From positions 1 through 63,517 of IMG/VR virus record IMGVR_UViG_3300025476_000001: 63,517 bases of DNA; one strand, written 5' to 3'. Below, piece by piece: positions 22,683 through 24,416 of the stretch. The position numbers and the translations under genes are program-made. Each line of letters starts with the position of its first letter. The stretch's first letter is position 1. This DNA is from a virus (Duplodnaviria > Caudoviricetes). A model generated the notes under the pieces. That model searched no databases. It had not been told where the DNA came from and saw only the letters and a program-made list of their open reading frames with translations.

Positions 22683-24416
22683 ATGAGTAAAGCTATACAG
22701 GAATTAGTCGAATCGAGAATGGCTGCTATGCAGTCTGATCGCAGGAGACTTACCGAGTCCTGGAAACCGTACATCGGTTCCGTGGATGCTTACCTCGCAA
22801 AGAGTGGGAAATCCCCTCTGACCGAGATGGATAAAATGAACATGGCGCGTTGCCTTGAGAACGCTCTGTTAGAAGGTGGAGTTCGCTCCAAGTCGAAGAT
22901 TTTTGAAACGACCGATAGCTCTGCTATCTCCTTCTTGGGCATTCAGTTGCCCGTAATCGCTGCCCTCTTGCCCAGCCTCGTGTTGAACAAGTTAGCAGTA
23001 ACCCAGGCATTAGATCGCAGATCTGGCGCAGTCTTTTATCTGGACGTGAAATACGGAACTGGTAAAGGCTCAGTTTCTGCTGCACAGGATATGATGAATG
23101 CACAGACTGGTCATAACTCGACCCTTGGTGGTCGTGAATATGCATCGGTTCGTGTTACCAACGAAGTGTACCCGGCAACAACTACGCCGCACACTCTTGC
23201 GTACTTCCCAGTAGTATCTGGATCTACCGTCATCACCGATAGCACAACTGGAAACGTGTTGACAGTCGTCTCATCCAGCGGTGGCGTGGATGTGTTAGCA
23301 TCTTCGCTTTCCTCGGGACATTCTGGAACCGTAACTCTAGCAACCGGCGTGGTAGTAATCAACGGTGGTGGGTTAAGTTATGCGGGTACTGTTTCTTATA
23401 TGTACGATTGGCAAACTGGTGGTGTTGGTGGTGTAACTACAGCGAACGTTCCTGAAGTTAATATCTCAGTCACCTCCGCAACAATCACTGCAGAGGATTT
23501 CCCGCTCAAAGCTTTGTTTACTCTTGGTGCTGCAATCGACCTCGAGAAGGCGCATGGTCTGAATCTTGAAGACGAGCTGGTGAAATATCTTGGTGGTGAA
23601 GTAAAGTTCACAATGGATCATCTGGGAATCGATTTAATGAACGCTGCCTCTCAGACGGTTGCTGCTGCGACTACACCTGGAACTTATACCGCGACACCGT
23701 CAGCTGGTGAAGCGTGGGTGTGGAAGAAATATCAGTTTCTGGATTTTGTAGAGAAAGCTAACGTGGCAATAATCTCTAAGACGTTACGTGCAGTTTGTAA
23801 CTTCTTAGTGGTTGGTAATAACACTGCCCGTCTCGTTCGTCAGTTGGATCCTCATTTCAAGCCAGCTTCTGGATTAGACACGTTAGTTCCTACCGGTCCT
23901 TACGAACTGGGTACTTTGGACGGCAGGCTCATTGTTCACGATCCGTTGTTAGGCGCTAATGAGATTCTGTTCGGATTCAAGGGTGACAATTATCTGTTTG
24001 CTGGATTCTTGTTTGCCCCGTATATTCCTTTATTTGCAACTCCGACACTCGTGACCGCTGATCTCAAGGCCCAGAAGGGTTTCTTGGCGTCTGCTGGCTA
24101 CAAAGTTGTGAATGCGGGCATGTACACCCATTCGACGATTAACTATGGATCATTATAAACAATGTTAATCTACAGTGGCATTAAAAAGCGATTTTTAATG
24201 AAAACCTTGAATATGCTGGGATCTCTCAGAGATGAGACAATCAGCAGGGATAGCTTGAGCAGTCAAGAAGCCCTCAACGACTACCAAGAGGCATCTGATT
24301 TATCAGATGGTGGTATAGTCTGGTCTATGTAGTGATGCATAGAGATTGGCAGAAATGACCAATCCCACAGCAATGTGAGTAACAATACGGGTACGATGAA
24401 CTACGGATCACTTTAA
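22683..24416 (+). CDS. Major capsid protein (T4 gp23-like); exon 1 22683-24131 plus exon 2 24390-24416; the unspliced form also ends in frame at 24158
   Basis: SGAVFYLD, LKALFTLGAAIDLEKAHGLNLEDEL, FAPYIPL gp23-type motifs; follows prohead protease; SD AAGGAG. Confidence 0.92.
24132..24389 (+). ncRNA. ORF-less group I self-splicing intron (258 nt) at the 3' end of the MCP gene
   Basis: P1: exon CCAT pairs with GTGG 24175-24178 (U.G at splice site); P2 hairpin with GCGA loop; P3 CCTTG 24205 / CAAGAGG 24285; P4 TGCTG 24214 / CAGCA 24242; P7 GACTA 24279 / TAGTC 24316; P8 CATCTGA..TCAGATG; P9 hairpins; terminal G 24389 restores frame. Confidence 0.88.

Follow-up and report, generated by a model that had tools for sequence, protein, structure and literature searches.

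We describe the 3' end of the major capsid gene in a tailed-phage genome fragment (Duplodnaviria; Caudoviricetes; IMG/VR record IMGVR_UViG_3300025476_000001), a linear virus record of 63.5 kb with an estimated completeness of 43%, the whole of which (63,517 nt, hereafter the window) was analysed. At this 3' end the C-terminal tail of the protein is encoded twice, once by the first nucleotides of a predicted group I intron (copy A) and once by the exon that follows it (copy B), such that the gene appears complete whether or not the intron is removed. The open reading frame (ORF) at 22683..24158 (+) encodes a 491-aa protein of the Gp23 family (PF07068, 106.3 bits versus a gathering cut-off of 24.4), which also matches phrog_138, major head protein (3e-31), and has 350 identified homologues; its upstream neighbour is a prohead-protease-like gene. 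The ORF ends ...CAT TCG ACG ATT AAC TAT GGA TCA TTA TAA, where 24132-24158 encode STINYGSL and the stop, and 231 nt beyond that stop lies GGT ACG ATG AAC TAC GGA TCA CTT TAA (24390-24416), encoding GTMNYGSL and a stop. The features on which the argument depends are as follows.

22683..24131, + strand: exon 1 of the major capsid gene (codons 1-483), Gp23 family, defined by the ORF, PF07068, phrog_138 and the 350 homologues
24128..24131, + strand: 5' strand of the P1 helix, CCAU, with the predicted 5' splice site after U24131; pairs with 24175-24178 in minimum free energy (MFE) folds, and the junction is that of an intron-less allele, L094
24132..24389, + strand: predicted group I intron of 258 nt with no endonuclease ORF inside; RF00028 match, compensatory change among five homologous introns
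24132..24158, + strand: copy A, the opening 27 nt of the intron, continuing the frame of exon 1, encoding STINYGSL and a stop and forming the P1 extension and loop; 20 of its 27 nt equal copy B
24164..24178, + strand: internal guide sequence; duplex and hairpin folds pair 24164-24173 either with copy A, as the P1 extension, or with exon 2, as P10, and 24174-24178 with the end of exon 1
24389, + strand: terminal G of the intron, with the predicted 3' splice site after it; aligned terminal-G column in five introns, frame restored
24390..24416, + strand: exon 2, copy B, encoding GTMNYGSL and a stop; 25 of its 27 nt equal the tail of the intron-less L094

The group I intron and its predicted splice sites

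The sequence evidence places a group I intron between codons 483 and 484, eight codons before the capsid stop. In a local scan of 551 nt, RF00028 matched 24157-24342 with 56.8 bits (E 8e-14; gathering cut-off 50), with the same bit score in a search of the record itself, which bears out the group I core that an initial annotation, made from the sequence alone, had placed after the apparent capsid stop. Within its 258 nt the intron contains only mechanical ORFs of 30-56 aa. Scans of the whole window with Rfam (1-63517, both thresholds) returned no group I intron, a miss that is a filter effect and would hide such introns in routine annotation; because the capsid ORF looks complete and both of these scans came back empty, standard annotation would overlook the intron, as had been anticipated.

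The intron is most likely self-splicing, to judge from its predicted pairings. In an unconstrained MFE fold P1 consists of C24128-G24178, C24129-G24177, A24130-U24176 and U24131.G24175, and in the MFE fold it is extended by 7 bp between GAUUAAC (24137-24143) and GUUAAUC (24164-24170); as P10, the start of exon 2 pairs with 24164-24173 at -5.0 kcal/mol. The 5' splice site follows from colinearity with the capsid homologues, from the U opposite the guide G and from the intron-less allele L094. Since the exon-side part of P1 is not unique, this assignment depends on the reading frame, that allele and the P1 extension, and not on P1 alone. The 3' splice site is fixed by the alignment of five related introns at their terminal G (G24389 in the window), all five sharing a 3'-terminal AAGUAA(C/A)A motif that ends in the aligned G. 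Joining 24131 to 24390 preserves the frame, and spliced and unspliced mRNAs would both encode 491 aa, differing by S484G and I486M. The folds, the L094 junction and the intron alignment thus agree with the P1 pairs, extension, cleavage after U24131 and frame-restoring G24389 of the initial annotation, and with its two products of equal length that are two residues apart.

RNAalifold applied to the five introns gave 43 consensus pairs, 24 of them with compensatory change, the P7 pseudoknot being left out of scoring. Compensatory changes occur also between the introns of two of the contigs, L004 and L107, which have the same site and arrangement. The covariation indicates that the five ribozymes are maintained.

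The intron-less allele in contig L094 encodes a capsid protein 94% identical to that of the window over residues 271-491. It reads ...ACC CAT GGT ACC ATG AAC TAC GGT TCA CTT TAA, ending HGTMNYGSL, and is followed by a hairpin and then by the next gene; its C terminus is that of the predicted spliced product of the window (junction CAT|GGT). By comparison with L094 the window carries two insertions, the 258 nt between CAT and GGT and a 253-aa ORF at 24476..25237, and neither L094 nor L079 has an intron or an endonuclease-type gene. The capsid homologue P0009 (88% identical) also ends HGTMNYGSL. Glycine occupies residue 484 in 115 of the 118 other listed capsid homologues with the anchor motif, and past residue 480 the tail varies freely in length and sequence among the homologues. 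Separately, we observed that P0079 and P0094 have Ser484, and the tails of P0079, P0094, P0009, P0025 and P0028 hint at more cases.

Recurrence at the capsid C terminus and the two tail copies

Scanning viral and metagenome contigs with the capsid alignment gave 62 loci. The 3' end could be read in 47 entries, among which some contigs figure twice; for these the last 75 nt of the ORF were compared with the 1.5 kb downstream, 2 entries being short of downstream sequence. ORF, ribozyme and second tail copy occur together in five distinct contigs among these entries: the window, L004, L072, L081 and L107. Besides the window, where the A/B repeat has a local-alignment z of 5.7 and 7.9 against shuffles, the tail-repeat scan returned L004 (the same as L016 and L078; z about 10-12), L081 (z 23.6) and L072 (z 3.2, confirmed by eye), whereas L107 was found by inspection. 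Introns with a duplicated exon-2 peptide, first proposed for the window, are thus seen in four further contigs. In all five a complete capsid ORF is followed by a group I core that begins no more than about 20 nt from the stop and then by the second tail copy, RF00028 scoring 57.6, 61.3, 63.8 and 78.5 bits (cut-off 50) in the other four. The predicted sites are as follows.

Window: copy A of 27 nt; 5' splice site after H483; guide CCAU/GUGG
L072: copy A of 33 nt; 5' splice site after G479; guide GCCGGU/GCCGGC
L081: copy A of 52 nt; 5' splice site inside codon 474
L107: copy A of 53 nt; 5' splice site inside codon 472; guide GCAGGUU/GAUCUGC
L004: copy A of 59 nt; 5' splice site inside codon 472; guide GCAGGGU/GCUCUGC

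The five contigs have four different splice sites within 36 nt. The match of the guide to the frame-restoring U site is unique in L004 (1/56 sites) and nearly so in L107 (2/53) and L072 (3/51). In L107 the second copy, which comprises the last 18 codons, is split by two further introns into mini-exons of 17, 18 and 18 nt. Position in the gene separates introns with a copy from those without: every intron seen in the last 20 capsid codons has copy A, whereas those at about eight other capsid sites (residues ~42-54, 284, 293-295, 309-312, 346-352 and 446-450) have early in-frame stops and no copy.

More generally, the capsid genes of this phage clade have group I introns at about ten sites (seen at L107:900-5000 and also in L102, L106, L108, L074, L084, L103 and L112-L115), and L107 by itself accounts for 9 RF00028 matches within 5.7 kb, of which 6 exceed the cut-off. 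One of the public sequencing runs that contain the stretch, X4, also yielded a 224-nt contig of the same sample in which sequence ending in an intron-type motif, ...AAAAGTAACAGAATG, gives way to a lower-identity match to the capsid gene, starting at 23721. A co-occurring relative thus carries an intron near residue 346/347. In L050 an unrelated intron belonging to the same subfamily carries an exact 24-nt repeat that ends in GAGTAACA (L050:3829-3852 and 4135-4158; z 17), one copy ~250 nt upstream of the P9.1 loop and the other directly behind it; L012 and L026 have similar, diverged repeat pairs.

Several other candidates were set aside. In L113/L114 the apparent duplication (q7-87 then q55-76) reflects an intron of the ordinary kind at q54, together with a tblastn segment that crosses a stop, the overlap at q337-352 in L102 is an over-extended alignment, and weak tail matches in L067/L091, L074, L071, L098 and L103 (z 1.7-4.3) lie in the next gene or are gapped noise. 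A degenerate T-(I/M)-NYGSL-stop pattern recovered only the L004 contig from the viral contigs, P0079 as a query gave no match in the viral contigs, and the capsid alignment gave no match in the genome contigs.

These comparisons bear on whether the ribozyme acts at all. Were it inert, or nearly so, the capsid protein would simply be exon 1 plus copy A, and the ribozyme with copy B a relic of a donor gene that came in with the endonuclease cassette and lies in the 3' untranslated region. Such a relic would accord with an ORF that is complete without splicing, with the runs that contain the stretch all being DNA, with the weak exon-side P1 of the window and L081, with the decay that a broken endonuclease gene in L072 reveals in these cassettes, and with the splitting of copy B itself by two more introns in L107. 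We nevertheless consider it very unlikely. With 56.8-78.5 bits, the five ribozymes all pass the Rfam cut-off, their helices are kept by compensatory change, including that between L004 and L107, every guide fits the site at which the frame is restored with the B of its own genome (in L004, L107 and L072 at the frequencies given above), and copy B, not copy A, resembles exon 1 in codon usage and has the Gly484 of the consensus.

The differences between the two copies are of a coding type. Summed over the five contigs, 65 of 224 nt are not shared by A and B; these are distributed 16/8/41 over codon positions 1/2/3 (binomial p=9e-7), and of 76 codons 31 differ synonymously and 16 non-synonymously; as DNA the copies are 67-75% identical. 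There are no indels and no early stops in any of the five pairs, and the stop is always at the homologous place. Accordingly, the first in-frame stop of the window intron, at intron nt 25-27, is homologous to the native stop, and read-through would cause no truncation. In 20000 runs of simulated random substitution all five frames and stops stayed intact in 0.19%, and 16 or fewer non-synonymous codons were never obtained. The initial annotation had taken the synonymous differences in the window as a sign of selection on the peptide; the coding-type pattern holds across five contigs, although divergence between alleles before the copies were joined is not separated from selection in place.

The copies are not equivalent. 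Identity to intron-less tails is higher for B than for A in the window (0.93 vs 0.67), L072 (0.85 vs 0.61), L004 (0.78 vs 0.63) and L107 (0.75 vs 0.58), and GC at third codon positions (GC3) amounts to 31/71 for B, near the 887/1950 of exon 1, as against 17/71 for A (p about 0.02, from five short sequences). We read B as the normal copy, and A as a diverged copy shifted towards A and T at third positions. Replacing A with B makes the P1 hairpin less stable in four of the five contigs (A/B: -9.5/-7.3, -26.1/-20.3, -20.7/-15.3 and -26.9/-19.1), and the hairpins, taken from the end of exon 1 to the guide, are lower by 1.4-3.7 sd than those from shuffled A. Within each genome A and B have one and the same tail type (NYGSL, NIVSA, TIV, STF), which differs between genomes; the residues at which A and B differ vary from genome to genome (S/G, I/M; C/T, G/T, V/I; C/V, A/P, C/T; and so on).

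Divergence of this kind could have arisen without any function for copy A, if A is a by-product of insertion, a passenger in a tolerant P1 loop, whose divergence from B predates their joining. On this view an element linked to an endonuclease, on entering a gene at its 3' end, may introduce a second copy of the segment for the C terminus or leave one in place. C-terminal duplications of cob and atp6 with endonuclease ORFs are reported for fungal mitochondria in the available part of the relevant source (PMC6279837), and would offer a precedent. Copy A is far from all sampled intron-less tails (0.58-0.67) and B is close, as if A came from an unsampled foreign allele; at the codons that are ATG, TAC and CTT in their B copies, the window and L004 share ATT, TAT and TTA in A; and the amino-acid constraint on A appears relaxed across genomes. 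A passenger, however, would not readily explain why five copies out of five are in frame, free of indels, with a homologous stop and exactly at the 5' splice site, why the likeness of A and B ends at most a few bases past the stop (2 nt in the window), or why the tail type is equal in A and B of each genome though variable between genomes. Nor would it explain why A is shaped to stabilise P1 in four of the five or why the copies are separated, as those of the mitochondria are not, by a conserved ribozyme poised to link exon 1 with B. On balance we regard the by-product explanation as rather unlikely, though it is the strongest alternative.

The initial annotation had also raised a regulated switch, by which the efficiency of splicing would govern how much is made of each of two capsid isoforms with distinct functions. 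Each of the five genomes does encode two products that differ at 2-4 residues. The switch finds no support, however, because the residues that differ between A and B are idiosyncratic, not constant from genome to genome; the Rfam scan and the intron alignment revealed no sensor element in the intron, and the tail past residue 480 is free to vary among homologues. We consider such a switch extremely unlikely.

Two further observations concern the copies. Beyond their stops A and B show some likeness (TAAAC...TTAAT), but not enough to build on. In L072 a 9-mer, TGTATTGCC, at the start of copy A (L072:4454-4462) occurs again right after its stop (4486-4494), running into the guide GCCGGC, and removal of the 32 nt between the 9-mers would reduce P1 to a compact hairpin of 6 bp that closes a 7-nt loop; this repeat, a single observation, may be a trace of the insertion of the copy.

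Downstream endonuclease genes and a possible translational backup

Beyond exon 2 the window continues with three further features.

24424..24468, + strand: long stem-loop 3' of exon 2, with chance hairpin-type matches to miRNA models at 24421-24471
24476..25237, + strand: free-standing gene for a 253-aa HNH/endonuclease VII-like protein (phrog_1035, 1.5e-8; phrog_5718, 2.5e-5)
25224..26162, + strand: neighbour gene encoding 312 aa, of no family, the right-hand anchor of the insertion region; its homologues directly follow the capsid or endonuclease gene in L094, L004, L081 and L072

A comparable GGGAGAGG hairpin follows the capsid gene in L094. Since a consensus terminator scan gives no call for the hairpin after exon 2, we do not name it a terminator. 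The HNH-like gene starts 60 nt downstream of exon 2, and its product has no Pfam match; L094, without this gene, runs from the hairpin straight into the next gene. An endonuclease gene follows exon 2 in four of the five contigs, i.e. the window, L072 (where it is broken), L004 and L081, none having been looked for in L107. In L072 a homologue of the HNH-like gene of the window occupies the same slot (L072:4785-5538), split into ORFs of 58 aa and 172 aa, which reflects either a decaying endonuclease gene or an assembly error. The slot is filled in L004 and L081 by a different nuclease (L004:5905-6789, L081:3060-3923), with a C2H2 zinc finger, NUMOD3 and a TnsA-like N-terminal nuclease domain.

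As a layout, an ORF-less intron with an adjacent HNH-like gene suggests 'collaborative homing'. Because the endonuclease gene lies beyond exon 2, any transfer of intron and endonuclease gene together must also carry copy B, and the intron, exon 2 and the endonuclease gene would travel as one block.

The proximity of these genes raises the possibility that copy A acts mainly at the DNA level, as a cleavage-resistant version of an endonuclease target that leaves the gene whole beside the insertion and differs from B to avoid both cutting and recombination that would delete the intron. Engineered homing drives use a comparable device, 'recoded rescue'. The position of the changes would suit this account, A deviating most at or near the junction (GGT to TCG in the window, all three bases of the Gly codon; THGTI to CHGGV in L072), as would the low DNA identity of A and B (67-75%) when 31 of the 47 differing codons are synonymous, and the presence of free-standing endonuclease genes of two families just downstream. 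In the collaborative-homing model, as set out in the part of the review available to us, an intron that splits the target already confers immunity (PMC3984707), and the stabilisation of P1 by A would be left unexplained. Protection of this kind, which we take to be highly improbable as the main role of A, is in any case compatible with a backup role and not exclusive of it.

With respect to other neighbours, homologues of the gene at 25224-26162 (L072:6030-6260, L092:1577-1768) include a stretch 36-41% identical to capsid residues ~164-242, a variable insertion region, and the capsid gene and the next structural gene may share a domain. The prohead-protease-like ORF (20392-22662) encodes 756 aa, of which only residues ~16-229 match protease families; the remainder is Cys-rich and then coiled-coil-like, and the protein may be a protease-scaffold fusion.

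The explanation that we favour, and that we hold to be somewhat more probable than the remainder taken together, is that of an intron which splices and whose P1 loop serves in addition as a backup for translation, with copy A kept by selection. In this scheme, capsid mRNA would be heavily translated and, with translation close behind transcription in bacteria, many ribosomes would reach the splice site before the ribozyme folds. P1 would be blocked while ribosomes read copy A, and perhaps also while they terminate 5 nt upstream of the guide. A ribosome crossing the unspliced 5' splice site would then complete a 491-aa protein (S484, I486), with no truncated subunit being released. If copy A were absent, read-through at an intron 8-20 codons from the end would release near-full-length, truncated subunits. 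Copy A would turn such read-through into usable or harmless full-length subunits, and the spliced mRNA would give the Gly484 consensus protein; A would consequently be under a double constraint, to encode the tail and to fold as the P1 hairpin. That a lineage of phage group I introns has recoded its P1 stem-loop as an in-frame copy of the exon, so that the essential host gene under the heaviest translation is expressed whether splicing or the ribosome wins, is a broader proposal, which we put forward tentatively and at somewhat less than even likelihood.

A number of observations weigh against the backup explanation. The unspliced product has Ser484 and the spliced product Gly484, the residue of nearly all the homologues compared above. 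Between genomes the synonymous/non-synonymous codon differences are 1/7 for A vs 6/5 for B, 2/6 vs 5/4 and 6/2 vs 6/4; as A gains more amino-acid changes in two of these three comparisons, it is under weaker constraint than B, and together with Ser484 these changes make A look like a weaker backup, as opposed to an isoform of equal standing. The excess of synonymous differences could have built up while A and B belonged to two separate alleles, prior to their joining. In the window P1 has only 4 pairs on the exon side, and over the last 150 nt 9 of the 45 U positions that could serve are equally good; in L081 8 of 45 sites match the guide as well. The P1 hairpin of L107 is less stable with A than with B (-18.7/-20.8), and both the hairpin and GC3 comparisons concern five short sequences, with p about 0.02. 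Among 53 viral loci with the P7-P9.1 motif of the intron, flanking copies were seen only in L016, on the contig of L004, and this near-absence in the subfamily means that the copy goes with introns in the last 20 codons and not with the ribozyme family as such. The public sequencing runs that contain the stretch, 6 in number, are all DNA, those named X1-X4 coming from freshwater sites, and contigs of four of the runs contain identical copies (X1/X4) or fragments (X5/X6), with no spliced or intron-less form. Finally, the argument from ribosome occlusion draws on general knowledge of ribosome footprints.

If the backup explanation is right, the buffer would remove the lethality of intermediate states, and would account for the four splice sites within 36 nt, the two extra introns in the displaced copy of L107, and the mobility of a cassette composed of copy A, ribozyme, exon 2 and endonuclease gene between capsid alleles; that viable intermediates explain the four splice sites is speculation on our part. 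The arrangement would be a natural counterpart of the 'recoded rescue' of engineered drives, and the two C-terminal peptides would report the outcome of the race between splicing and translation in vivo. It would also represent a third route by which a selfish element becomes harmless, besides efficient splicing and insertion into non-coding RNA. As the gene looks complete and the whole-window Rfam scans missed the intron, such introns, and with them the true consensus protein, are likely to have been overlooked in phage genomes.

Relation to known introns and homing systems

Group I introns in phage protein-coding genes are familiar from td, nrdB and sunY of T4 and from Twort and SPO1. Translation and the folding of the ribozyme are at odds, which is considered to restrict such introns in bacterial and phage protein genes, and an unspliced message is usually regarded as lost. 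A review from 2014 on group I introns of bacteria interprets, in the part available to us, the in-frame stops of phage introns as a means of halting ribosomes and describes translation as disturbing folding (PMC3984707); the same part has no wording on duplicated, truncated or unspliced forms. The capsid intron resembles these phage introns in being a small ribozyme in an essential, highly expressed gene, with a U.G pair in P1, a terminal G and an in-frame stop. It differs in that theirs, as far as that part of the review goes, is an early stop giving a truncated unspliced product, whereas here the predicted unspliced product is full-length and near-native, the 5' end of the intron copying exon 2.

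Capsid genes have been reported to harbour group I introns before, in Cluster J mycobacteriophages (PMC3706429) and in Lactobacillus plantarum myophages (PMC6669764). Those cases have in common with the present one an intron in the major capsid gene that is self-splicing, here by prediction, and the available parts of both reports make no mention of an exon copy; in the present clade, with capsid introns at about ten sites, the copy is confined to the last 20 codons.

Collaborative homing, in which an ORF-less intron is paired with a free-standing endonuclease, is described in the accessible portions of the literature for the DNA polymerase gene of T3/phiI and for psbA of cyanophage S-PM2 with F-CphI (PMC3984707, PMC6083498), and also for the ICP1 terminase (PMC10448857). 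The capsid locus has the same ORF-less intron, adjacent endonuclease-like gene and allele with neither (L094), but differs in its exon copy within the intron and in the two unrelated endonuclease families that occupy the same slot; here the intron and endonuclease gene are a candidate pair. The fungal mitochondrial cob and atp6 loci are similar in another respect, a complete gene being followed by a partial C-terminal copy with associated endonuclease genes (PMC6279837). There the second copy is treated, in the part of the source available to us, as a relic and no ribozyme is described, whereas in the capsid genes a ribozyme lies between copies of 27-59 nt and the endonuclease gene lies beyond the second.

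The literature searched, outside which most subscription journals and supplements fell, yielded no intron that re-encodes its downstream exon, in line with the statement of the initial annotation that it knew of no described equivalent. Introns in phage capsid genes and pairs of intron and endonuclease were already known; what appears to be new is the re-encoding of the exon, by which the unspliced gene is complete.

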